This document shows, in pieces, positions 1,240-27,666 of a DNA stretch of 32,000 bases. This DNA is from Candidatus Electrothrix sp. GW3-4 (lineage in GTDB: Bacteria > Desulfobacterota > Desulfobulbia > Desulfobulbales > Desulfobulbaceae). The notes under the pieces are model-generated. The model worked only from the letters and a program-made list of their open reading frames with translations. It made no database searches and had not been told where the DNA came from. The DNA lies in contig NZ_CP147990.1 of the NCBI RefSeq assembly GCF_037902255.1, positions 3,300,001 to 3,332,000 on the forward strand, written 5' to 3'. Position 1 is the first letter of the stretch. Every line of letters starts with the position of its first letter. The position numbers were made by a program, and so were the translations under genes.

Positions 1240-3603
1240 TCACACATCCTTGTTCAGCCAATCATCAATCAGGGCATTGAGATTCAGGCCCATCCCCGCA
1301 ACATTGGGTTTCAGCTCCGTGCGCTCATTCACCCGGCGCATTAAGGCCTTTAATCGCCCTTCCTCCTTATCCGCCTGCACTGCAACCCGCATCCGCTCCC
1401 CTTCCTGCTCATTATCGGGATGCACCGCAGCAAGGAGATCCTGGACCCTGTAGACCTGCTCCGAATCCTCGGGGATGTATTGCTCCAGGCCCTTTTCCCG
1501 GTAGGTGAGCAGGGTCTGATAGGGCACGCTGCGTCCGGGATCATCCGGCATGGGCACCCGCTCGCTCACCCGCAGACCCTCAAAGCCGGTATTGATCTCC
1601 CGCAGGGAGAGCCAGAGCAAAGCCAGATAGACCTTGCGCTCCTTACCCGTGACCGCGATACGGATACGCCGGGCCTCGTTGTCCGCCCGCACCACGGCAA
1701 CGGCCTCCAGCTGGGGATGGGCCAGCACCACCCCGGTGCGCCAGCGCAGCTTATCCTTGATTTCCCGGTGCCGTTTAACGATGAAGCGGGGCATGACCGA
1801 AGGCGGTAGGAAGTCGGTATAGTGGAGGACAAAGCAAAGCGCACCGTCGTAGGGGAAATCAAACTGCGGCTGCGGCACGGCCAGCAGTTGGGGAATGAGC
1901 ACCTCTTCGCCGGGCAGCTCGTAGCAGAGCTCGAACTTCTTCATCAGCTCGATGATATAGCGGTGATCGGCCCGCCTATATATATAGGGGTCGTCGTCTT
2001 GAAGCCGGAGTATATCCTTGAGGGCATCCAGCCTGAGCAGGCCCTTGTCTGCGGCCACTGACTCGGCATTGATGATCTTATAGACCGCTCCGGTTACCCA
2101 TTTGGGCTCCAGGACGTGATTATCGTCCAGGCCAAAGTCGCTGAAGTGGATGACAATGCCCAGATCGTGGAGGAATTCAGCCAACACATCCTGCTTGCCC
2201 GCCTCGTTGACCCCGGCATCGACACAGATACCGGTAAAGCATTCATAGCTGATGCATGGCTCGCTCATCTGCTCAAACTTCGCCTTGACCCGAAACCAGC
2301 TCCCGGGCCAGCGGGTATGCACCATAGGTACATTGACCAGCTCCTCCAACAGGGCTTGCTTAAAGGCACGGATACCGTTGCCGGTGCAGCAGGATGTCCG
2401 CCAGAAGCCAGCGATGAAAGGGTATTTCTCCAGCAGGAAAGGCCGGTCAAGATCAAAGCCGGGATTGGTGTCGTATTTATTGAGCACCACCAGCACCGGT
2501 GAACCGCCACCAAAGGACTCGATATAGCGCAGCCAGTATTCGGGCCGCTCATCCCGCCTGCCGTCCAGGACCAAAACATAGAGGCTGCGGCGGGAAAGGA
2601 AAAACTGGTGGGTGGCATGCATGATCTCCTGTCCGCCGAAGTCCCAGAGGTTGCAACGTAGCTCCTGGTCACCGGTGTCCAGCTGCCAGTTCTTGATGCG
2701 GATGCCGTGGGTGGTTTCCTCGTGTTGATTGAAACGCTCGTCCCGGAGACAGCGGGTGAGCGAGGTCTTGCCCGAAGCGCCCTCACCTATAAGGATGACC
2801 TTGACCTCACCAACTATCCGGGTGCCTTCTTCGAGGGCGGCGAAGTATTCATGAATAGCTTTGAATCCTTGAATAGCAAGTTCATAAGGAGGAGAGGTAA
2901 GAGGATTGCGGTAAACCGGAACACTCGTATCTACAGATAATCGGACGATTTGTGGAGACAATTCAATAAACTTATTATCAGAAAGATCAAGATATATAAG
3001 ATTTGTCAGTTGATATACTTCAGAAGGTAATTGAGTTAGATAATTATCGTATAAAACAAGCCTAGCAAGGTGAGTTAATAGGCCAATCTTTGGAGATAAT
3101 GCGACAAGATGGTTATGAGCCAAATAGAGATCAGTAAGATTGGTTAGCTGAAATAATTCCTCAGGCAAAGAGGTTAACCAAAGATCACCAAGTTTAAGGT
3201 TATTGAGATTTATTAATTGAAAGAGTTGCCGAGGAAGCCTTATCTGTCGATTTCCGGTAAGATAAAGTCCAGTAAGGTTATTCAGTTGGATAACATTCGA
3301 AGATAGCTCGGTCAATTGGTTGCCGCCAAGATCAAGCTCTATAAGTTTTGTTAGCTGGAAGAGCTGAGAAGGGAGTTCCGTTAGTTGGTTGCCGGTCAGC
3401 TCAAGTCTAAGCAAATTGTTCAATTGAGCAATATCTGGAGAGAGCTCAGTCAACTTGTTAAAGCTAATATCAAGTTTGGTAAGATTGGTTAATTGAAAAA
3501 GCAGTGGCGGCAATTCGGTCAAGTCTAATCCGTTAAGATCAAGCTCCGTTGCCCCTGTCTCCCTTGCCTCCTCAATCCTCCGCAACGCCTCTTCATACCC
3601 CAT
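1240..3603 (-). CDS. ROCO-family protein: about 9 leucine-rich repeats, Roc (Ras-of-complex) GTPase and COR domain
   Basis: 787-aa ORF. The 23-aa LRR units follow LTELPxxLFQLTNLxxLxLxxNx. P-loop GEGASGKTS, switch II DFGGQE, G4 NKYD, then a long COR-like C-terminal region. GGAGG SD lies about 9 nt upstream of the ATG. Confidence 0.85.
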   Translation of the reverse strand: MGYEEALRRIEEARETGATELDLNGLDLTELPPLLFQLTNLTKLDISFNKLTELSPDIAQLNNLLRLELTGNQLTELPSQLFQLTKLIELDLGGNQLTELSSNVIQLNNLTGLYLTGNRQIRLPRQLFQLINLNNLKLGDLWLTSLPEELFQLTNLTDLYLAHNHLVALSPKIGLLTHLARLVLYDNYLTQLPSEVYQLTNLIYLDLSDNKFIELSPQIVRLSVDTSVPVYRNPLTSPPYELAIQGFKAIHEYFAALEEGTRIVGEVKVILIGEGASGKTSLTRCLRDERFNQHEETTHGIRIKNWQLDTGDQELRCNLWDFGGQEIMHATHQFFLSRRSLYVLVLDGRRDERPEYWLRYIESFGGGSPVLVVLNKYDTNPGFDLDRPFLLEKYPFIAGFWRTSCCTGNGIRAFKQALLEELVNVPMVHTRWPGSWFRVKAKFEQMSEPCISYECFTGICVDAGVNEAGKQDVLAEFLHDLGIVIHFSDFGLDDNHVLEPKWVTGAVYKIINAESVAADKGLLRLDALKDILRLQDDDPYIYRRADHRYIIELMKKFELCYELPGEEVLIPQLLAVPQPQFDFPYDGALCFVLHYTDFLPPSVMPRFIVKRHREIKDKLRWRTGVVLAHPQLEAVAVVRADNEARRIRIAVTGKERKVYLALLWLSLREINTGFEGLRVSERVPMPDDPGRSVPYQTLLTYREKGLEQYIPEDSEQVYRVQDLLAAVHPDNEQEGERMRVAVQADKEEGRLKALMRRVNERTELKPNVAGMGLNLNALIDDWLNKDV

Positions 3604-3730: not shown

Positions 3731-3960
3731 GGAAGGTCAGCATGAGACACCCTGGTTCCTCTAAGGGAGCAACGAGGGTCCCTCCATCAGAGTAACCCTG
3801 GTCCCTCCATCAGAGTAACCCTGGTCCCTCCATCGGAGCAACCCTGGTCCCTCTGTCGGAGCAACCCTGGTCCCTCTGTCGGAGCAACCAAGGTTCCTCT
3901 ACAAGAGCCACTACGGTTCCTCCATCGGAGCAACCCAGGTTGCTCTGCATAAAGATAGCA
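3731..3960. repeat. Intergenic tandem array, 23-bp unit x ~9-10 (consensus ggtccctccatcggagcaaccct)
   Basis: The anchor ggt(c/t)cctc recurs at 3754, 3777, 3800, 3823, 3846, 3869, 3892, 3915 and 3938, an exact 23-nt phase. Units 2 and 3 are identical and the outer units are degenerate. The array lies between the GT2 stop and the ROCO start. Confidence 0.9.
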
Positions 3961-3988: not shown

Positions 3989-5188
3989 TCAGGGTCGTTC
4001 CTCCTCCCTGATCTTCACCCGCACCCAGGGCAGAGCCGAAACCTTGTACCGCCGCAGCTCCTCCAGGGAATAAAAGGTGCCGCGCCAATCAACTCCACCC
4101 CGGAGCAGGGTGAGCAACACAGCGCGCCATATAATATAGAGCTTGATATAGGGGGTCACGGGAAACCAGTACAGGCAGCGGAGATCCATGTGAAAGAAGC
4201 GAAGCGACAGGAGCAGGCCGAGCACATTGACAGCTACGATGGCCCCGCAAAGAAGCCGGGGCAGGCCGTCAGCCAGCAGCAAGCCCCAGAGCGGGAGGAT
4301 CTGGGTGGAGAAGACTGCCACAGTCGCGGCAAGGAAGAAGGACAGGCGGTAGTCCAGCAGGGCAAAGGTGTTCTTTTCCAGGCCGCGCACCATCTGGCCC
4401 ACAGTTTGGTACCAATCCACGCTGACAAAGCGACCCCCGAGCAGGCAATCGCAACGGCCGCCGCTGATCTTGGCCATGCGCCCCAGCAGCACGTCATCCA
4501 CCGGACAAAGGCGGATGGGATGATGCCCGCCAAAGCTGTGATAGAAACTCTTCCGTATCATGTTGAAGGCGCCTGCCCCGACATAGAAGCGGGGTCCAGG
4601 CTTGCTGACCAGCCAGGGCCTCAGCAGAGAGAAAAGACTGGCAAGGCTGTCTGCAACCAGCAAGGGCAGCAGTGAGCCAGGCGCGCTCATGCGGAAAAAG
4701 AGACAGAGGTGATCCAGGGTTTGGCTCTGCATACGTGCGGCAGCATGCCTGAGGGTATCCGGGGCAAAGTGGACGTCGGCATCGGTAAAGAGCAGGTATT
4801 CGCCCTTGGCCTGGGCCGCCCCCAGGTGCAGGGCATGATTCTTGCCCAGCCAACCCGCTGGCAGATCTGTGATATGAACCACCCGCAGGCGGGAATGCTC
4901 ACCTGCCATACGGTCAAGAATCTGCGGCGTGGCATCAGTGGAACGATCATCAAGGACGATGATCTCCAGGTTGGGATAATCCAGGGCAAGGACCGAGGTC
5001 AGGGCGGTCTCTATCTCCTGCTCCTCATTGCAGGCCGGGATAATGACGGAGACCTGAGGCAGGGTATCTCCCTCCAAAGGCGGGACATCCTCTAAGCGCA
5101 CCATACAACGATGGGCCAAGTACATATTACGTAACACGGCCAGGGCAATAACAAGAAGACAGAACAGGAACAGGGTGAATAGGGTCAT
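3989..5188 (-). CDS. Membrane-bound family-2 glycosyltransferase
   Basis: 399-aa ORF. N-terminal TM helix, then 'VSVIIPACNEE...LDYPNLEIIVLDDRSTD' (GT2 DxD region), 'PAGWLGKNHAL' and 'FTDADV'. Several C-terminal hydrophobic helices. Confidence 0.8.
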   Translation of the reverse strand: MTLFTLFLFCLLVIALAVLRNMYLAHRCMVRLEDVPPLEGDTLPQVSVIIPACNEEQEIETALTSVLALDYPNLEIIVLDDRSTDATPQILDRMAGEHSRLRVVHITDLPAGWLGKNHALHLGAAQAKGEYLLFTDADVHFAPDTLRHAAARMQSQTLDHLCLFFRMSAPGSLLPLLVADSLASLFSLLRPWLVSKPGPRFYVGAGAFNMIRKSFYHSFGGHHPIRLCPVDDVLLGRMAKISGGRCDCLLGGRFVSVDWYQTVGQMVRGLEKNTFALLDYRLSFFLAATVAVFSTQILPLWGLLLADGLPRLLCGAIVAVNVLGLLLSLRFFHMDLRCLYWFPVTPYIKLYIIWRAVLLTLLRGGVDWRGTFYSLEELRRYKVSALPWVRVKIREEERP

Positions 5189-14391: not shown

Positions 14392-14505
14392 ATGCGGGAT
14401 CTGTTTTTTCAAATGATCATGCTGATCTGCTGTGGCCTTTTTCTCTTCCCAGGGCCCTCCTTTGCTGAACGAACAGATCCGCAGCAAGATCCTGCTGATT
14501 ACTGA
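14392..14505 (+). pseudogene. Truncated 5' remnant (37 codons) of a cusB-like periplasmic adaptor gene
   Basis: MRDLFFQMIMLICCGLFLFPGPSFAERTDP... aligns by eye at about 85% nt identity with the first ~100 nt of the adaptor gene at 25579. Homology ends at 14497/14498 and a stop follows at 14503. Confidence 0.75.
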
Positions 14506-14550
14506 GGATGGTCTCAAAGGATTCCCTTTTCCATAAAAGGCAGTACGATA

Positions 14551-15693
14551 ATGAACCGCAAAGTACATAACATTGTCACCGCACCGGGGAAAAAGAAAAT
14601 CCTGGCCATTGACGCCGGGGGCACCCGGGGCGTTATCTCCGTCGAGATTCTGGCCCGCATGGAAGCAATACTCAGAGAGGAACTGGATGCAGGTGATGAC
14701 TTTGTGTTGGCTGATTATTTCGACTTTTTCGCCGGAACAAGTGCCAGTGCCAATATTGCCTGCTTTTTGTCCTTAGGTCTGTCAATCGAGAAAATCCGTG
14801 CCCTGTCAAGAGAGCATGTCCGCCTGTCCTTTGCCAAAAATGCATGGCACTGGCGCTGGCGCTCCAAATTTGATGGCCAATATGTCACTGCTGCGCTGAA
14901 GAAAGAGCTGGGTGAAGACACACTCCTCGGAACTGACGCCCTCAACACCTTACTCATGCTGGTGATGCGGAACGCGCAGACCGAATCGCCATGGCCAGTT
15001 ACGAACAATCCCTATGCGATCTTTAACAAACGGGACGTACCGGGCTGCAATCTTGACCTCCCCTTATGGCAGTTGGTCAGGGCCAGCTCAGCAGCCCCGC
15101 CGCTCTTTTCACCGCAAAAGATTCAGATCGGCGAGCATGAATTTGTCTTTGAAGACGGTGCGATCAGTCCCTACAGCAATCCCGCCTTTATTGCCTTTCT
15201 CCAGGCAACTGTGGACTCCTATAATATCTGCTGGCAAACCAGTAGAGAGGATATACTCCTTGTCTCTGTAGGCAACGGCAGATACTATGGGAAATGCGAC
15301 GCGCTGCATCCGATGGGGAGAACACTGCTCGAAAACGCCAGGACTCTCCCGGTCAGCCTTCTGCGGGCGGCCAACGATGAGCAGGACATGCTGTGCAGGG
15401 TCTTTGGCCACTGCCTGACAGGTCCTCTTCTGGACAGTGAAATCGGTGATCTTATCAACAGCCAGGGCCCTGTTTCACCAAAGCTTTTCACCTATCTCCG
15501 CTATAATTTTGATATAACAGAAGACTTCTTTCAGGGGATAGGAATAACCGATATTGATATGGATATCATCAGATCTGTTGCTGCTGCTGACCATCTGGAG
15601 GAACTTGAAAACATAGGCACGGAGGTAGGAAAACATCTTGTCAGCAAAGAGCATTATCAGGATTTCCTCTTTAAGAATACCAATAATGCGTAG
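14551..15693 (+). CDS. Patatin-like phospholipase
   Basis: 380-aa ORF. Oxyanion motif 'ILAIDAGGTRG', nucleophile-elbow variant 'AGTSAS' (GxSxS) and catalytic Asp motif 'FEDGAISPYSNP'. Confidence 0.85.
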   Translation: MNRKVHNIVTAPGKKKILAIDAGGTRGVISVEILARMEAILREELDAGDDFVLADYFDFFAGTSASANIACFLSLGLSIEKIRALSREHVRLSFAKNAWHWRWRSKFDGQYVTAALKKELGEDTLLGTDALNTLLMLVMRNAQTESPWPVTNNPYAIFNKRDVPGCNLDLPLWQLVRASSAAPPLFSPQKIQIGEHEFVFEDGAISPYSNPAFIAFLQATVDSYNICWQTSREDILLVSVGNGRYYGKCDALHPMGRTLLENARTLPVSLLRAANDEQDMLCRVFGHCLTGPLLDSEIGDLINSQGPVSPKLFTYLRYNFDITEDFFQGIGITDIDMDIIRSVAAADHLEELENIGTEVGKHLVSKEHYQDFLFKNTNNA

Positions 15694-15695
15694 TA

Positions 15696-16322
15696 ATGTG
15701 TAGATGGACTGGAGAGAAAAGAGGCAAAGATCCGTCTCCTTCTGTCATGGTTTTTTCCGGCCATATGATTGACTCGCCGACCAGAAAACCTCCCCGCTTT
15801 CCTCCTGAACTTGAGCATACTGTCACACATTGCATCAATGAACACCTTGTCCTTAATAAAGGAAAAATCGCGTATGCAGCTGCGGCCTCAGGAGGCGATA
15901 TCATCTTCCTTGAGCAGATGCTCTCTTTGCATGGAGAGATCAACATCATCCTTCCTGTTAGCCCTGCTGATTTTAAAGAACAAAGCGTCGCGCCTGCGGG
16001 ACGAACATGGTCACTGCGTTTTGAACGCCTCCTGGCGCATGCTGCAACCGTGCAGATCCTTGGCCCCTATAGCCCGACAAATTTCAAGGAGAGCCTGTGC
16101 AACTGCAACCTGCACCTTTGCAAACTGGCAACTACCCGAGCCCGAAAAAAGAACATGCAGGTTCGTGGCCTGACTGTGCTGGACAGTACCCAGCCTGGCC
16201 ACCTCACCGGAGGAACAGCCTCTATGATCTCTCTCTGGCAGCAGCAAAAAATCCGGTATTCCTGTATTTTTCTTAACAAGCTAAGGAGTAAAAATAACAC
16301 AGGTAATCTTTATGGATCATGA
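15696..16322 (+). CDS. Stand-alone SLOG/LOG-like Rossmannoid protein (putative nucleotide-ligand sensor or processor)
   Basis: 208-aa ORF starting 2 nt after the patatin stop. The pattern 'VMVFSGHMIDSPTRKPPRFP', '...IAYAAAASGGDIIFLEQ' and '...GEINIILPV' matches the strand / Gly-rich loop / strand layout of LOG/SLOG domains. The assignment is by eye only. Confidence 0.5.
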   Translation: MCRWTGEKRGKDPSPSVMVFSGHMIDSPTRKPPRFPPELEHTVTHCINEHLVLNKGKIAYAAAASGGDIIFLEQMLSLHGEINIILPVSPADFKEQSVAPAGRTWSLRFERLLAHAATVQILGPYSPTNFKESLCNCNLHLCKLATTRARKKNMQVRGLTVLDSTQPGHLTGGTASMISLWQQQKIRYSCIFLNKLRSKNNTGNLYGS

Positions 16323-17400
16323 CGTTTTTATCAGTCATTCTTCGCAAAGCAGTACTGCGGCTACAACGATCGTTCATCAGCTTGAACAAAACGATATCCA
16401 TTGCTGGCTAGCACCTCGGGACCTGGACCCTGGCAGTGAATGGGCAGAGGGAATCATTGACGGCATTGAGGGATGCCCTGTATTTCTGCTCCTCCTCTGC
16501 CCCCATGCCAACAGCTCTCCGCAGGTCCTCCGGGAAGTGGAGCGTGCTGTCAGCAAAAAGAAGCCTATTATCCCGGTCATGCTGGGCAACTTCACCCTGT
16601 CAAAATCCCTGGAATACTTCATCAGCAGCCATCATTGGCTGGAGTTTTCTCCGAAGACCGCCCGCAACAACACCAAAATACTTATTGATGTTATCCATAA
16701 AAAGCTCTCAAACCAAGATCGTGTCCCATCTTCATCACCTCAGGAGGCCCCACCAAACACGCACAACAGGCCAGCTTTTTTTGCTCGCAAAAGAGCAGTC
16801 TTGCCCCTTATTGCTCTCCTTTTTCTTCTGCTGAGCTGGCTCTTTTTTCATTTCTTCCGGCATCATTTTGAATCACCTGCCCCGCCCCCTACTGTGCCGA
16901 AGACAACAACACAAGCACTTGATCACTCCACCCAAGCAACAATCTCTGAAGAAAATCTCGGACCGGACGTTGTTTCTGGAGAAGTTTTCGGGATACCGAA
17001 TGGCAACGTTGTGAAAGCACGTATTCACGGCAAAGAAAGAGAGCTTCGCCTGTACGGCACAGATGCCCCCGCGCCTCAACAGGAGTACAATGAAGAAGCG
17101 CGAGCCTTCCTTGAACAACTGATTATTGACAACCGCATTCGTGCCACCTTACTTGGAAAAGACGACCGAGGACACACAGAGGCTATCATCAGTAGCGGAG
17201 AAGCACTCCTCAACAAGGAAATGATCCGGGCAGGATATGCCTGGAAAAATACCAAGCATTGCCAGAAAGAACCTTTATGTTCCGAAATGGGCAAACTTGA
17301 ACAGAAAGCACGGGCTCAACGCCTGGGACTCTGGCAGGGAGACAACCCTATCCCGCCTTGGGAATGGCCCAGCCATCAGAAACTTTTACAAAAACAATGA
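16312..17400 (+). CDS. TIR domain - single transmembrane helix - SNase (thermonuclease)-like domain protein
   Basis: 362-aa ORF overlapping the previous gene by 11 nt. TIR_2-type 'DVFISHS' and 'SSPQVLREVERA' (putative catalytic Glu). TM helix 'AVLPLIALLFLLLSWLFFHFF' at aa ~162-182. C-terminal SNase-like 'RLYGTDAPAP...DDRGHTEAI...EQKARAQRLGLW'. Confidence 0.8.
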   Translation: MDHDVFISHSSQSSTAATTIVHQLEQNDIHCWLAPRDLDPGSEWAEGIIDGIEGCPVFLLLLCPHANSSPQVLREVERAVSKKKPIIPVMLGNFTLSKSLEYFISSHHWLEFSPKTARNNTKILIDVIHKKLSNQDRVPSSSPQEAPPNTHNRPAFFARKRAVLPLIALLFLLLSWLFFHFFRHHFESPAPPPTVPKTTTQALDHSTQATISEENLGPDVVSGEVFGIPNGNVVKARIHGKERELRLYGTDAPAPQQEYNEEARAFLEQLIIDNRIRATLLGKDDRGHTEAIISSGEALLNKEMIRAGYAWKNTKHCQKEPLCSEMGKLEQKARAQRLGLWQGDNPIPPWEWPSHQKLLQKQ

Positions 17401-17500
17401 GAACATCTTTTGAAGACCTGAAAAACAGAGCGACATAGCCTTGGGTGATGCCCACAGAGTAGCTTGCCCAGTTCATGAAAAATACGGGATAACTTTTTAA

Positions 17501-17985: not shown

Positions 17986-18696
17986 ATGTGCGATGGTCAT
18001 AATCACAGTCACCCTACTCATACCCATACAACAACACGGGTTCCTGTGGCAGAACAGATCCTGTCTGCCAATGACAGGATCGCCCAACGTAACCACAGCC
18101 TGCTGCATCAGAAAAAAGTGTACGGTATCAACATCATGGCCTCTCCTGGCGCAGGCAAGACCAGTGTCCTGCTCAAGACCTTGGAGGCTCTCAAGGGACG
18201 GCTGCGGCTCGGCGTCATTGAAGGCGACCCGGCAGGCTCCATTGATACAGAGCGGGCTCTTGCAGCAGGAATGCCTGCGGTCCAGATCAACACCGGCGGG
18301 GAATGCCATCTGGATGCGGTGATGATGGAAGATGCCCTCAGCCAGCTGCCCCTGGATGATCTTGATCTGGTGGTGGTGGAAAACGTGGGTAACCTGATCT
18401 GCCCAGCCAATTTCCGGCTCGGTACCCATCTCAATCTGGTGATTGCCTCCATCCCGGAGGGAGATGATAAGCCCTATAAATATCCGGGCATGTACATGGG
18501 CATGCAGGCCCTGATCATTAACAAAATTGACCTCCTGCCCTATGTCCCCTTTGATATGGAGTATTTCCACCAGGGCGTTGAGGTGCTTAATCCCGGCATT
18601 GCCACCTTTCCGCTTTCCTGCCGGACCGGTGAGGGCCTGGATGCCTGGGCAGACTGGCTGGTTGAACAAGCACGTGCGGAGATCATACCCAGATAA
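17986..18696 (+). CDS. hypB: Hydrogenase maturation GTPase HypB
   Basis: 236-aa ORF. His-rich N-terminus 'MCDGHNHSHPTHTH', P-loop 'SPGAGKTS', 'ENVGNLICP' and 'NKIDL'. Confidence 0.9.
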   Translation: MCDGHNHSHPTHTHTTTRVPVAEQILSANDRIAQRNHSLLHQKKVYGINIMASPGAGKTSVLLKTLEALKGRLRLGVIEGDPAGSIDTERALAAGMPAVQINTGGECHLDAVMMEDALSQLPLDDLDLVVVENVGNLICPANFRLGTHLNLVIASIPEGDDKPYKYPGMYMGMQALIINKIDLLPYVPFDMEYFHQGVEVLNPGIATFPLSCRTGEGLDAWADWLVEQARAEIIPR

Positions 18697-21106
18697 TGTT
18701 CGTCCGGGTACAGGGGCTGGTGCAGGCCGTGGGGTTCCGCCCCTTTGTCTACGGTCTGGCCACAGACTTAGGACTCTGTGGCTGGGTGCGTAACACCTCT
18801 GCTGAGGTGGAGATTCTCCTTCAGGGGCAGAACGGGGCTATTAAAGATTTTCTCGCCCGCCTGAAGCAGGATGCACCCGCACTGGCCCGCATTGATGCCA
18901 TCTCCACCGAACCGGGTTCCTCGGCGAAACGACAGACAGAGCGGTATAGGGAGTTCACGATCCTGCCCTCCGAGGAACAGAAGGGCAAAAGGCAAGGCGT
19001 ACAACCCATAGCCCCGGATGCGGCCCTCTGTTCTGACTGTGAACAAGAGCTGCTGGATCCCGCTGACAGGCGTTATCTCTACCCCTTTATCAGCTGCACC
19101 AACTGCGGCCCACGTTTTACCATCATCCAGGATCTGCCTGTGGACCGCCAACGTACGGTCATGCAGGCCTTTCCCCTCTGTCCGACCTGTCAGACGGAAT
19201 ACGAGAACCCACTGGACCGCCGCTTCCATGCCCAGGCCTCGGCCTGCCCGGTGTGTGGGCCGCACCTAACCCTATATGGGAGGAAAACCGGGCAGGCACG
19301 GGGACCTGCCCCTACAGATCTAGATCTGGATGCCCTGCTCACCGCCCGTCGCCTTTTACACGAAGGCAAGATCATCGCCATAAAGGGGCTAGGTGGCTTT
19401 CATCTGGCCTGTGATGCGGAAAACCCTACTGCGGTCGCCGAGCTTCGTCACCGCAAAAATCGCCCAGATAAGCCCTTTGCCCTCATGGCAGCGGATCTGG
19501 AACAGATCAAGAACATCTGTCAGGTCAGCGATGCAGAGGCGGCACTCCTTCAAGGGTCGGAGAAGCCTATTGTCCTCTTGAAAAAAAATACGTAGGGGCA
19601 GGCCCCTGTGCCTGCCCGGTCTGTAGGGGCACGACGCGCCGTGCCCCTACTATTACCTCCAATGTTGCCCCAAACCTGGACCGGCTAGGCTGCATGCTCC
19701 CCTATACCCCGCTCCACCTGCTCCTGCTCAACCAAACAGACCCCGTTCTTGCCCATGAACCTGCCCCGGCCCTGCTGGTGATGACCAGCGGCAACCGCAG
19801 CGGTGAACCCATTTGCACGGAAAACGAGGAGGCCTTGACCCGGCTGGCTCCCCTGGCTGATGCCCTGCTCCTTCATGATCGGCCCATCCATAGTCGCTGC
19901 GATGACTCGGTGCTGCGGATAGACAGAGAAAACCGCACAGCCCTTTTTCTCCGCAGGAGCCGGGGCTATGCCCCCTATCCGGTCCAGCTCCCTTTTCCAG
20001 TCGAACACATACTTGCGGTGGGAGGTCAGCTCAAGAATACCTTTTGCTTAGCCGAAGGGACGCAGGCCTTTCTCAGTCAGCATATCGGCGATATGGACGA
20101 AGCAGCAACCTCTGCCGCCTTTGCAGCAAGCGTGCAGCAGGTCAGCCAGCTCTTCCGCATCCAACCGCAGTACATCGCCCATGACCTCCACCCGCAATAC
20201 TTCACCAGCCGCTATGCCCAGACAGAATCCCAACTAAACGGCCTACCCTGCCTGGCGGTCCAGCATCACCATGCTCATATCGCAGCCTGCATGGCGGATA
20301 ATGGTCTGGAAGATAGAAAGCTCATTGGCCTTGCCTTTGACGGCACCGGCTTCGGCCCGGACGGCACGATCTGGGGTGGCGAGGTTCTGATTACCTCATA
20401 TACCAAGTTTGAGCGCTTTGCCCATCTCCAATACTTTCCTTTGCCCGGAGGTGAAGCCGCCATCCGTCAACCCTGGCGCATCGCGGTCGGTGCAGCCCAT
20501 GCCCTTGGTATAGCAAGTACAGAGCTTGACGACCTGCCCTTTCTCGATCATATTGAGCCCCAGGCCCTGACCATTATCCGGCAGCAGGTGGACAAACAGA
20601 TCAATTGCCCTCAGACCTCTTCGTTAGGACGACTCTTTGATGCCGCAGCCAGCCTGATCGGCATCCGCAATCAGATCAGTTATGAGGCCCAGGCTGCCAT
20701 TGAGCTGGAGGTGCTGAGCAAACCGTACTTGGACTCAGCTACGCCCTGCACACCTTACCCCTTCTCCCTTGCGCAAACGGAAAGAGTTGTTCCCTTGCAG
20801 GGGCTGTTCCGGGCTATGTTAGAAGATGTCCGCAGGCAGGAACCAGTCGGCCTGATCGGGACCAGACTCCACCAAACCATTGCCCAGCTCGCCATCACCC
20901 TCTGCCTCCAGGCCCAAGCCCTAACCGACCTCCAGGAGGTGGCCCTGTCCGGCGGGGTCTGGCAGAACCAGCTCCTCCTGGACCTGGTCCGCAACGGTTT
21001 AGAAAAACACGGTCTGACCGTCTATTGCCACCAGCAGGTACCCTGCAATGACGGTGGCCTTGCTTTGGGTCAACTTGCTGTGGCCTATCATCAAATAATA
21101 ACCTGA
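18696..21106 (+). pseudogene. hypF: Carbamoyltransferase HypF, interrupted by a 59-bp insertion (two ORFs: 18696-19595 and 19694-21106)
   Basis: All expected parts are present: acylphosphatase-like 'VQAVGFRPFVYGLA', four CxxC zinc motifs, the YrdC-like 'GKIIAIKGLGGFHLACD', and after the break 'MLPYTPLHLLLL...' with the Kae1-like domain. Deleting 19592-19650 restores one frame (…PIVLLKKNTITSNVAPNLDRLGCMLPYTPLH…). Confidence 0.85.
19592..19650. mobile_element. 59-bp MITE/REP-like palindromic insertion inside hypF
   Basis: The element is GTAGGGGCAggcccctgtgcctgcccggtctgtaggggcacgacgcgccgTGCCCCTAC. It has 9-bp terminal inverted repeats and two internal hairpins (gggcaggc/gcctgccc and gtaggggcacg/cgtgcccctac). 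'tac' occurs both just before the element and at its end. Its length is 2 mod 3, and it introduces a TAG at 19593. Confidence 0.75.
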
Positions 21107-25164: not shown

Positions 25165-25218
25165 GGAATGTCCCCGGCTGTCATTAGCCACACCAACATA
25201 AAGAAAAGGAGTACAATT

Positions 25219-25569
25219 ATGCGTATCATCAGAACATTCGGCCTGGTAGGTTTATGTCTTTTCGTGCTGCTGACCTTTGCCGGAACGGCCCTGGCAGAAG
25301 CCGCAGACCACCTGCCCGGTCATGGGCGGCAAGATCAATAAAGAGATCTATGTGGATTATCAGGGACAGCGGATCTATTTCTGCTGTGAGGCCTGTCCGC
25401 CGGAATTCAAGAAAGATCCAGAGAAATACCTGGCCAAGTTGAAAGATCTGGGCCAGGAGCCGGAGAAGATTGAGCAAGGCGAGAAAGAGAAGAAAAAGAA
25501 AGAGAGATGCCTGAGCATAATATGGACATGTCCGAGCATCACATGGATACGCCAGAGCATAAGGAATAG
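25219..25569 (+). pseudogene. Secreted YHS-domain metal-binding protein (copy 2) with Met/His-rich tail; two opposite-sign frameshifts as written
   Basis: Three segments in two frames. (1) The signal peptide MRIIRTFGLVGLCLFVLLTFAGTALA is in frame 1 and stops at 25339. (2) The YHS core 'KPQTTCPVMGGKINKEIYVDYQGQRIYFCCEACPPEFKKDPEKYLAKL' is in frame 2. (3) The tail 'MPEHNMDMSEHHMDTPEHKE*' is back in frame 1. AAAGGAG SD lies before ATG 25219. Confidence 0.75.
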
Positions 25570-25578
25570 GAGGATATC

Positions 25579-27666
25579 ATGCGGGATCTGTTTTTTCACC
25601 TGATCATCCTGATCTGTTGTGGGCTTCCTCTCTTCTCAGGAAACGCCTTTGCTGAACAAGCAGATCCTGCTGGGCATCAGCACGAGCAGGCCCCGGCAAC
25701 GGTCTGGACCTGCTCCATGCATCCCCAGATCCAGCTCCCGGAACCCGGTCAATGTCCTATCTGTTTTATGGATCTGATCGAGGTGGAAAAACAGAACAAC
25801 GAAGAGCGCCTCAGTCTGCGCCAGATCTCTCTGGACAGTCAGGCGAGAAAGCTGGCAGAGATCGAAGTACAGCCGGTCATCCGAGGGAACAAGGAAACCG
25901 ATGCGAGCATACAGATCTTCGGACGGATCGATTACGATGAGACCAGAGTCAGCACCATCACCTCCTGGGTGGACGGTCGCATTGACCGGCTCCTGGTTGA
26001 TTATACCGGTGCGACAGTGCAACGTGGACAGGCTGTGGCCCAGGTATACAGTCCAGAACTGTTCACGGCCCAGGCCGAGCTGATCCAGGCCCTGCAGGAG
26101 GTCAAGCGGGTTGGAAAATCAGAGAACAGCTTAGTCAAAAAAATGGCTGGCCGCACCCTGGCCGCGGCACGGGAAAAGCTGCGCCTGCTGGGGATCGGCA
26201 AAAAACAGCTGCAGGCCATGGAAGGGTTGGAACAACCTGCCCAGCATGTCACCCTCACTGCTCCGCAGGCCGGGGTGGTGATTGAGAAGCATGTCAACGA
26301 GGGCGTGTACGTCAAGACCGGCAATCCAGTCTACACCCTGGCCGACTTGTCCCAGGTCTGGGTGATCCTTGAGGTCTATGAATCAGACCTCCAAGCGGTC
26401 AGCATGGGGCAGAAGGTCGGCTTTACCGTGGAGGCCTATCCCGGTACCGAGTTTCAGGGCAAGGTGGTGTACATCGATCCGCTGGTGGATGAAAAAACCG
26501 GACCGTCCGGGTGCGTCTCAATGCTGATAACAGCAAAGGAAAACTAAAACCGGGGATGTTTATCCGGGCAGAGCTGGTCGTCCCGGCAGACGGACCAGGA
26601 CAGGCCCCGCTGCTGATCCCGGCCTCAGCCCCCTTGCTCACCGGCAAACGGGCCTTGGTCTATGTCCAGCTCCCGGATAAACCAGGGACCTATATCGGAC
26701 GCGAGGTGGTGCTGGGCTCACGGCGGGGAGACTACTACGAGGTAAAGAATGGGCTCAAGGAGGAGGAATTGGTCGTTATGCGAGGGAATTTCAAGATCGA
26801 CTCCGCCATCCAGCTCCAGGCCCGTCCCTCGATGATGAATCCCTTTACAGGGAGTGGTGACCAACAGAACAAGGCATTTCCCGAGCTCTTTTCCTCCCGA
26901 CTTGATCTCTTGAACCAAAGTTTTGTTGAACTCTCCCGGGAGACCCACAAACAGGACGGACAGGATGGAGGCCGATATCGCTCTGCCTTACAGGATTTCA
27001 AGCGGGCACTCTCTGCCATAACCGAAGAGGGGCTTAAAGAAGAGGAGAAGTTAAACTGGCAGGAGTTTGCCATGCTCCTGACAAATGACCTTATCCTCCT
27101 CCAGGAAGCAGAGGACGGCCAAGAAGCCCGACGAATCTACATCGAGTTTGCCGAGCATTTTCATCAGGTCCGTGAACGTTTTGCCATCCGGGACATTCCG
27201 GCAACCCATGCCGCCTCCCCGGAGCTCCAGGCCAAGGTAGGGGATCTGCTCAAAGGCTACCTGATCCTCCAACAAAACCTTGCGACAGATAATGAGCAGG
27301 TGGCCCTGGAGTCGGCAGCGGCCCTCCCCCTTAACAGCTTCCTTAATCACTGCCCTTCGCCAAACAGCAGCAAAGGAAGCAGGTGAGCTGGCAAAACGTC
27401 TGGAAGAGGGCATGCAAGGAGTATCAGCAGCAGGAAACCTGATCGAGCTTCGCACGGCCTTTTATCCCTATAGTCAGGCCGTGGTCGAAACAGTGGAGAC
27501 CTATGGTAGTAACGACCATACCTCCTGGTTTGTCCACTTCTGTCCCATGGCCTTTGATAACACTGGTGCCACCTGGTTGGCGCCCTCAGAGGAGATCAAT
27601 AATCCCTATTTCGGGACCATGATGCTCCGCTGTGGCGAGGTACGGAAGCAGCTGACGCAGGAGTGA
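25579..27666 (+). pseudogene. cusB: CusB-like RND periplasmic adaptor with N-terminal heavy-metal-binding motif and C-terminal DUF3347-like domain; two frameshifts as written
   Basis: 'WTCSMHPQIQLPEPGQCPICFMDL' is the metal-binding motif. The adaptor core continues across 26497 only after a -1 correction (…VDEKT|RTVRVRLNADNSKGKLKPGMF…). It continues across the C5 run at 27326-27330 only after a +1 correction. The C-terminus reads 'FCPMAFDNTGATWL...INNPYFGTMMLRCGE'. Confidence 0.8.

Follow-up and report, generated by a model that had tools for sequence, protein, structure and literature searches.

Type I Thoeris consists of ThsB, a TIR protein, and ThsA, in which a SIR2 domain is joined to a SLOG domain, and Type III Thoeris combines several TIR genes with a small SLOG effector. 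To our knowledge, all validated Thoeris types fuse the domain that senses the signal to the domain that kills. The patatin phospholipases CapV and CapE of CBASS, the antiphage signaling systems based on cyclic oligonucleotides, bind their ligands, cyclic nucleotides, at protomer interfaces and do so without a sensor domain. Yirmiya et al. (2025, bioRxiv 10.64898/2025.12.03.692087, Table S2) name a "SLOG Patatin" class as one of 29 putative types of Thoeris effector, and TIR–Tpr, YpsA–Tpr, and Patatin–Tpr assemblies are credited to Burroughs and Aravind (2020) in the summary given by a later preprint (bioRxiv 10.1101/2023.05.26.542521). Here we consider a stretch of 32,000 nt from Candidatus (Ca.) Electrothrix sp. 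GW3-4 (contig NZ_CP147990.1, positions 3,300,001 to 3,332,000; hereafter the window, to whose numbering positions refer unless another sequence is named), in which three adjacent genes encode a patatin, a stand-alone SLOG-like protein, and a TIR protein with a transmembrane (TM) helix and an SNase-like domain. We read this cassette, with a probability of about one half, as a Thoeris-like three-component abortive-infection (conflict) system.

Organization of the Three-Gene Cassette

The cassette consists of three co-oriented and tightly packed genes on the forward strand, namely the patatin gene (14551-15693, 380 aa), the SLOG-like gene (15696-16322, 208 aa), and the TIR–TM–SNase-like gene (16312-17400, 362 aa). 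A previous reading of the same DNA, made from its letters and open reading frames (ORFs) and referred to below as the sequence-only reading, had reported three same-strand genes with a 2-nt gap and an 11-nt overlap, and the junctions confirmed both: the first reads GCG TAG ta ATG and the second is formed by the overlapping letters ttATGGATCATGAcg / ATGGATCATGA. The SLOG-like gene has an alternative start at ATG 15747 (M18), which is possible because the first ~10 residues of the protein are variable and were modeled with low confidence. In two orthologous loci (L002 and L182) the SLOG-like gene overlaps the patatin stop codon by 8 nt; the tight packing is therefore a conserved feature. Promoter and terminator scans found nothing above the shuffled expectation.

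Domain Content of the Encoded Proteins

The hardest of the four domain calls made by the sequence-only reading was that of the middle protein (15696..16322, +), which it had described as SLOG-like. We found zero family matches for this protein in Pfam (E ≤ 1), PADLOC, and NCBIfam; it matched none of the curated SLOG families (Pfam LOG, DprA, YpsA, TPALS, STALD, LSDAT, and others). The only match returned by phmmer against the PDB, the retron Ec86 effector (E 1.7), was at chance level, and a profile of the SLOG-like family gave nothing significant among PDB sequences. Because the protein has no curated-family match in Pfam and its profile search of the PDB was empty, we assigned it to an uncurated SLOG family. 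Its AlphaFold2 (AF2) model (predicted local distance difference test score, pLDDT, 83; predicted template modeling score 0.82) has a Rossmannoid α/β fold, for which the best Foldseek match in the PDB was YpsA (2nx2, E 4.8e-7, TM-score 0.61/0.70), followed by DprA, ShosA, LOG, and the molybdenum cofactor (Moco)-carrier protein MCP. The matches in BFVD were viral SLOG, YspA/DUF2493, and DprA-like proteins, and all significant fold matches, from the PDB and from viruses, were members of the SLOG superfamily. The predicted structure thus supports a YpsA/DprA/LOG-type SLOG fold, and the call for the middle protein was upheld.

The conserved residues of this stand-alone YpsA-like protein point the same way. 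The GxD/E signature of the YpsA clade, which goes with the Gly-rich loop after β2, has been described (PMC6459960), and the clade is said to include sensors of cyclic ADP-ribose (cADPR), such as the SLOG domain of ThsA (PMC9503650). In the middle protein, G66-G-D68 (G66-x-D68) was invariant in 150 aligned sequences and corresponds to this ligand-binding signature. The family also conserves the polar residues H23, D26, R30, R34, D68, E73, S97, R108, N138, and T174. The LOG catalytic motif PGGxGTxxE is shrunk to GGTxxM, and its Glu is lost.

A word-indexed search with the stand-alone protein recovered 9 relatives only; an exhaustive profile search returned 4,619 cluster representatives carrying the SLOG-like domain, 827 of them at E ≤ 1e-30, which corresponds to a frequency of ~2.5 per million protein clusters. 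Among 81 multidomain members, TPR-S was present in 64 and an adenylate/guanylate cyclase domain in 34, and the commonest architecture was TPR-S + SLOG-like + adenylate/guanylate cyclase. Other fusion partners were RyR, SLATT, protein kinase, AAA_35+TIR, and receiver domains. No Pfam or PADLOC model covered the SLOG-like domain in any fusion context examined. The fusions to SLATT, nucleotide cyclase, kinase, and TIR fit the role of a signal receiver. When genomes were scanned with the SLOG-like profile (80 loci), the fused TPR-S/cyclase form dominated, and an adjacent TIR gene was found in 11 of the 80; since the scan returned almost only fused forms, it is no measure of the conservation of the trio.

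The first gene (14551..15693, +) encodes a patatin-like phospholipase, which is predicted to be cytoplasmic and to act as the executioner. It matched Pfam Patatin (PF01734) over profile positions 1-190 of 191 with 61 bits against a cut-off of 27.7 (E 2.3e-16). The motifs that had been claimed for it are all in place: the oxyanion loop D21-A-G-G-T-R-G27 (G23-G24-x-R26), the nucleophile motif G62-T-S64, and D202-G-A. The Ser64/Asp202 dyad is thus intact, and S64 and D202 are invariant across the family alignment. The elbow reads GTSAS, with the last Gly replaced by Ser, in the subclade of the trio and GTSTG in the wider family. The AF2 model (pLDDT 74) has a CapV/CapE-like fold, the closest structures found by Foldseek being CapV (8zr9, E 3.7e-16), CapE, and then plant patatin. 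The PADLOC model of CBASS-type phospholipase effectors matched with E 7e-28 in the N-terminal two thirds only; in fact, the PADLOC and NCBIfam CBASS models reach only ~residues 15-245, and the score with NCBIfam CBASS_lipase (68.7 bits) was below the cut-off of 200. The C-terminal third is family-specific, conserved, and unlike CapV. No TM helix was found in the patatin by a hydropathy scan. The family to which it belongs is large, with thousands of members of ~371 aa and ~49% identity over the full length. Its most conserved stretch, NEQDxLCRVFGxCL…D-E-G, lies at residues 244-311 (15280-15483) and was modeled with pLDDT <50; it possibly acts as a mobile lid, or as an interface with a partner or a ligand, which becomes ordered only upon activation.

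The third gene (16312..17400, +) encodes a single-pass protein with its N terminus inside. Residues 1-135 (16312..16716, +) form the cytoplasmic TIR domain, which matched Pfam TIR_2 at residues 5-115 with 75.8 bits (cut-off 28). The TIR domain and catalytic Glu proposed by the sequence-only reading were borne out: E75, in the motif S69-P-Q-V-x-R-E75-V-E-R-A, was invariant in 121 of 121 aligned TIR sequences, and S69, Q71, R74, E75, E77, and R78 were unchanged in at least 119 of 120 homologues. These residues suggest a TIR domain with putative NADase/cyclase capacity. The score with Pfam ThsB_TIR (14.8 bits) was below the cut-off of 21.2, and the weak PADLOC matches were to effector-type TIRs, e.g. 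SAVED-TIR, together with a weak SNase match. The protein contains one strong TM helix (residues 163-183, 16798..16860, +); the Kyte-Doolittle maximum over 19 residues, 2.4, falls at residue 163, and there is more positive charge in the N-terminal flank of the helix (FFARKRA) than in the C-terminal one.

Beyond the membrane, an SNase-like oligonucleotide/oligosaccharide-binding (OB) fold, predicted to be extracytoplasmic, occupies ~residues 225-345 (16984..17346, +). It was recognized by Pfam SNase at residues 245-342 with 53.9 bits (cut-off 21), so the domain itself stands as first called. Its alignment to S. aureus nuclease showed that R35 (R246) and D40 (D251) are kept and that the canonical D21, E43, and R87 are replaced by N232, A254 (within a conserved "DAPAPQ"), and H288, respectively; N, A, and H/E occupied these positions in all orthologues (three compared), and the canonical general base is thus missing. 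Because these residues are replaced and the domain lies outside the membrane, we consider it a probably non-catalytic binding module, i.e. an extracytoplasmic binding or sensor domain more likely than a nuclease. The orthologue of the whole TIR–TM–SNase-like protein in Ca. Electrothrix scaldis is 92% identical. A further TIR orthologue (L002, 4925-6454, 509 aa) has two tandem SNase-like domains, and both carry the N/A/(H or E) substitutions.

Co-conservation and Related Loci

Whether the trio is conserved elsewhere had been put forward as a check by the sequence-only reading. We found the order patatin, SLOG-like, TIR in all five lineages for which flanking sequence was available, i.e. the window, Ca. 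Electrothrix scaldis, L181 (72%), L182/183 (60%), and L002-4 (57%). SLOG identity across the five lineages was 57-98%, and they represented at least three unrelated chromosomal neighborhoods. A chance juxtaposition of the three genes was ruled out by this recurrence of the same order.

The wider linkage was assessed from the 80 closest metagenomic relatives of the patatin, which came from a metagenome scan with the patatin profile. A SLOG-like gene was directly adjacent in 40 of the 80; it was fused to TPR-S in 23 cases, stand-alone in 11, and truncated in 6. A Pfam census of the other neighbors gave TIR_2 as the sole recurrent partner (9 ORFs), and DUF4062, FHA, clostripain, and WD40 were minor.

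Several of the related loci contain TIR genes. A metagenome-assembled genome of Binatia (L091) has the order TIR-WD40, TPR-S-SLOG-like, patatin. A larger cluster (L005; GCA_024449855.1, JAANSV012306347.1, 1-9693) comprises three TIR_2 genes, a TPR-S/MAP3K_TRAF_bd protein, a stand-alone SLOG-like protein, and a patatin, and it also encodes an ATPase matching the PADLOC candidate PDC-M28B; we regard this cluster as a possible relative of the cassette in expanded form. A stand-alone SLOG-like gene lies among TIR genes on a Sinorhizobium plasmid (L175). The closest relative of the TIR protein (63% identity) is a TIR–TM–DUF4384 protein (L176; GCA_054043905.1, 3244-5969), directly upstream of which lies a gene for an RyR–SLOG-like protein (45% identity). 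This locus represents a second recurrent TIR/SLOG-like pairing, one without patatin; the RyR–SLOG-like protein has a C-terminal region of ~200 aa, possibly a degenerate cyclase. Accessory domains are thus swapped among the loci, with WD40, DUF4384, or SNase-like on one side and TPR-S or RyR on the other.

Horizontal Exchange and Genomic Context

Compared by blastn with Ca. E. scaldis (CP138355.1), the cassette (14520..17402, +) was 91.8% identical over 2,883 nt, and the flanking genes were 70-80% identical. The block of high identity begins 31 nt before the patatin ATG and stops 2 nt past the last stop codon. Third-codon identity was 0.83, 0.76, and 0.90 for the cassette genes and 0.49, 0.60, and 0.42 for three flanking genes. 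That the cassette is far closer to E. scaldis than its flanks are, both in DNA and at third codon positions, indicates a horizontal exchange in recent times. Protein identity was similar in cassette and flanks, and the ratio of non-synonymous to synonymous change was higher in the cassette; this substitution pattern indicates relatively relaxed or diversifying evolution of the cassette.

The sequence-only reading had placed the genes at a rearrangement junction, which it took to fit an accessory island. The junction is real, because a partial duplicate of YHS–cusB ends in a cusB remnant at the cassette, and the accessory nature is shown by the recent transfer evident from the synonymous sites. 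The remnant, a 5' piece of cusB of 37 codons identified from repeat and blast results and from the letters themselves, lies directly upstream of the cassette (14392..14505, +), and the segment 14052-14498 is a diverged copy (~70-84%) of 25194-25667, covering the YHS gene and the first ~118 nt of cusB. The cusB gene ahead of the cassette is intact in E. scaldis. Copper-efflux genes immediately precede the cassette in two genomes, and the OEP–YHS–cusB block and the hyp genes are rearranged relative to E. scaldis. We rejected a "defence island" context for the window, because the genes on either side are of the housekeeping kind (sulfate activation, hydrogenase maturation, and copper efflux). E. 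scaldis itself carries a complete Gabija system (L006, 18133-21089; GajA 601 bits, GajB 539 bits, PADLOC) ~7 kb downstream of the cassette, with Hdr/Mvh genes between the two.

Proposed Mechanism and Alternative Explanations

In a Thoeris-like abortive-infection system, the single-pass protein would be anchored in the inner membrane, the TIR domain facing the cytoplasm and the catalytically degenerate SNase-like OB-fold the exterior. The TIR domains would be clustered by a trigger, possibly periplasmic nucleic acid, that is sensed by this protein or by way of it, and they would then turn NAD+ into a signal derived from ADP-ribose. The free YpsA-like SLOG protein would bind this signal and switch on the CapV-like patatin, directly or by co-assembly, and the activated phospholipase would degrade membrane phospholipid, so that the cell is killed or arrested in a presumed defence against phage. 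We favor this mechanism because the YpsA-like clade has been linked to cADPR sensing, because SLOG-like domains are fused to output domains, and because the nucleotide-activated CapV and CapE are closest to the patatin.

Several observations weigh against it. The cassette and its relatives are known from sequences and predicted structures alone, no PADLOC model recognized the cassette as a system (its matches were generic only), and the SLOG domain of ThsA was not found among the top 50 PDB fold matches of the middle protein. Two "SLOG Patatin" operons gave no defence in E. coli (Yirmiya et al. 2025, 10.64898/2025.12.03.692087). The flanks of the window are of the housekeeping kind described above, and it is unusual for phage to be sensed by a domain that faces outward. 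Roughly half of the relatives of the patatin have no SLOG-like neighbor, and some were confirmed to be solitary, among metabolic genes. Moreover, most loci with a SLOG-like gene and a patatin have no TIR gene, and a dedicated TIR may thus be dispensable to the pair; in the wider family the conserved core is SLOG-like plus patatin, with the TIR facultative though frequent. The assignment made by the sequence-only reading, in which the TIR is the producer, the free SLOG the sensor, and the patatin the effector, is thus supported as the idea of a nucleotide-signaling conflict system, and it does not stand as an obligatory role for the TIR or as the sole wiring.

Indeed, CapV and CapE, the closest solved relatives of the patatin, sense cyclic nucleotides without a sensor domain, so by analogy the patatin itself could be the receptor, and a free SLOG as the sensor is plausible without being the only possible wiring. 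The signal would then be made, matured, degraded, or thresholded by the SLOG-like protein as an enzyme, and the TIR would supply a precursor or act in parallel. The pairs mostly lack a TIR, so the SLOG-like protein could be the source of the signal, as the CD-NTase is in CBASS; it conserves many polar residues, as expected of an enzyme, the SLOG superfamily includes N-glycosidases such as LOG, and according to one preprint the non-TIR partner of a TIR/TPR pair makes a cADPR isomer. The reduction of PGGxGTxxE to GGTxxM without its Glu speaks against such an enzyme, as does the best fold match, which is YpsA and not LOG, and the fusions to SLATT and cyclase suit a receiver better than a generator. 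The comparison with CapV is itself limited, as the C-terminal region of the patatin is unlike CapV, the CBASS models end at ~245 (starting at ~15), and the CBASS_lipase score is far below its cut-off. We regard this rewiring as unlikely. That the TIR itself kills, by depleting NAD+, with TIR and patatin as parallel toxins and the SLOG-like protein as regulator or antitoxin, would agree with the many bacterial TIRs that are NADase effectors (in CBASS, Pycsar, and prokaryotic Argonaute (pAgo) systems), with the intact catalytic Glu, and with the weak PADLOC matches to effector-type TIRs such as SAVED-TIR. However, a TIR that acts as an effector usually comes joined to a sensor in the cytoplasm (SAVED, STING, or a pAgo partner) and not to a TM helix with an outside domain, and SLOG-like and TIR genes stay linked at loci whose output is a cyclase or some other non-toxin domain. 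We consider parallel toxins clearly unlikely, and the least probable of the alternatives considered here.

The cassette might also have nothing to do with immunity. It could be a second-messenger-regulated module for lipid remodeling or envelope stress, in which the SLOG-like protein adjusts the activity of a patatin of housekeeping type and the TIR protein is a receptor for the envelope or for extracellular DNA (eDNA); in a multicellular cable bacterium, the module might serve filament maintenance or programmed cell separation. The large and well-conserved patatin family with its solitary members among metabolic genes, the commonest TPR-S + SLOG-like + cyclase layout, which resembles a signaling protein, the housekeeping flanks with copper-efflux genes upstream in two genomes, and an extracytoplasmic domain suggestive of environmental sensing all agree with such a role. 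Yet exactly the three-gene block was exchanged horizontally and stands at different chromosomal sites; it occurs very patchily (the word-indexed search gave 9 homologues of the stand-alone protein), the loci have swapped accessory domains, there is linkage to multi-TIR clusters, and non-synonymous relative to synonymous change exceeds that of the flanking genes. These features are typical of conflict systems, and a non-immune role is therefore clearly unlikely in our view.

A more specific version of the Thoeris-like reading takes the TIR–TM–SNase-like protein for an outside-in receptor: the dead SNase/OB-fold would bind periplasmic nucleic acid (phage DNA in transit, or eDNA), the TIR domain would signal, and the SLOG protein would serve as an adaptor that licenses the phospholipase. 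This is rather improbable. If true, it would be a bacterial counterpart of TLR9-type signaling with three tiers, sensor, adaptor, and executioner, and in cable bacteria, in which the periplasm is shared along the filament, the system could excise infected or damaged cells.

Other Features of the Window

Two further genes appear to be interrupted. The hypF gene is split into ORFs 18696-19595 and 19694-21106, with the break inside the Sua5/YrdC domain, which reflects a frameshift/pseudogene or an assembly error. The cusB gene (25579-27386) is apparently split as well, into the overlapping ORFs 25579-26547 and 26511-27386, and its E. scaldis orthologue is a single protein of 697 aa. A 23-nt tandem repeat of ~8.3 copies, with 79% matches and the consensus ACCCTGGTCCCTCCATCGGAGCA, occupies 3749-3946; the genes on its two sides encode an LRR–Roc–COR protein (ROCO GTPase; 1240-3603, -) and a GT2 glycosyltransferase (3989-5188, -).

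Comparison with Known Systems

Should a TIR signal pass through the free SLOG protein of the cassette to a separate CapV-like lipase, bacterial TIR signaling would gain an adaptor tier. The SLOG family involved is large (~4,600 cluster representatives) and is unseen by Pfam, PADLOC, and NCBIfam; it is linked in genomes with patatins, TIRs, TPR-S, and cyclases, and it could become a detection model. The membrane-bound TIR protein, whose probably non-catalytic SNase-like domain points outward, prompts the question whether bacteria use TIR receptors for signals from beyond the cytoplasm. Few candidate immune modules have been described for cable bacteria, and the cassette is one of them; being multicellular, these bacteria could gain from altruistic cell death.

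With Type I Thoeris the cassette shares a TIR with a catalytic Glu next to a SLOG-fold receiver that would control a killing enzyme, and the SLOG belongs to the same broad YpsA-like group. In contrast to ThsA, the SLOG of the cassette is free and not fused to the effector, and the effector is a patatin and not a SIR2; in contrast to the soluble ThsB, the TIR protein is of the TIR_2 type, is bound to the membrane, and has an SNase-like domain outside. None of the Thoeris models in PADLOC and NCBIfam was satisfied by the cassette proteins, and the PADLOC search for a named system, which the sequence-only reading had proposed, matched none. Type III Thoeris resembles the cassette in having a small SLOG protein beside a TIR, and the L005 cluster has three TIR genes. 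However, a multi-TIR locus on an S. meliloti plasmid with a small LOG-like SLOG escapes the SLOG-like profile, and NCBIfam ThcB4 scored 18.6 bits on the cassette against a cut-off of 220.

CBASS is represented by the patatin alone, whose best structural matches were CapV and CapE and whose best PADLOC matches were CBASS phospholipase models. Membership in CBASS was rejected, since there is no CD-NTase among the three proteins or the annotated flanking genes and the lipase is below the CBASS_lipase cut-off. More is shared with the TPR-S-centered systems (ASK-signalosome-like; BcTir/Tpr), in which the SLOG-like domain is usually fused to TPR-S and operons of TPR-S-SLOG-like plus patatin, with or without TIR, are common. 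The three proteins of the cassette differ from these in lacking TPR-S (PF20308), and its TIR carries the TM and SNase-like module instead. The overlap with the TPR-S-centered catalogue was judged second-hand, by the summary in bioRxiv 10.1101/2023.05.26.542521.

The closest precedent is the "SLOG Patatin" Thoeris candidate, which has the same TIR, SLOG, and patatin domain types and the same predicted logic. It differs in its two-gene form, with one effector gene and a ThsB-type TIR partner. The closest available homologue of the TIR of this class is carried by a locus on a Mesorhizobium plasmid (L179; NZ_AP023248.1, 9351-17668), which encodes a ThsB-type TIR, an Nmad2 protein, an 858-aa patatin with a multi-TM insertion, and a second TIR. 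This patatin matched neither the SLOG-like profile nor the patatin profile. Because of this result, the "SLOG Patatin" class appears to be built from families different from those of the cassette, a comparison made through one plasmid surrogate for the P. veronii protein. The other plasmid surrogate considered proved to be a multi-TIR locus with a LOG-like SLOG.

The sequence-only reading had taken the arrangement for an undescribed system. In the light of the list of Yirmiya et al., this claim is too broad for the combination of TIR with "SLOG Patatin"; it holds for the split form, since the three-protein arrangement from these particular families has not been described before as far as that list and the second-hand summary of Burroughs and Aravind extend. 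Our verdict, as judged from domain content, is that the logic of TIR + SLOG + patatin is itself not new and that the cassette would be a new three-component variant of Thoeris-like TIR signaling. What sets it apart is that its SLOG protein is free and belongs to an uncurated family, that its CapV-like patatin is separate, and that its TIR–TM–SNase-like protein resembles a receptor.

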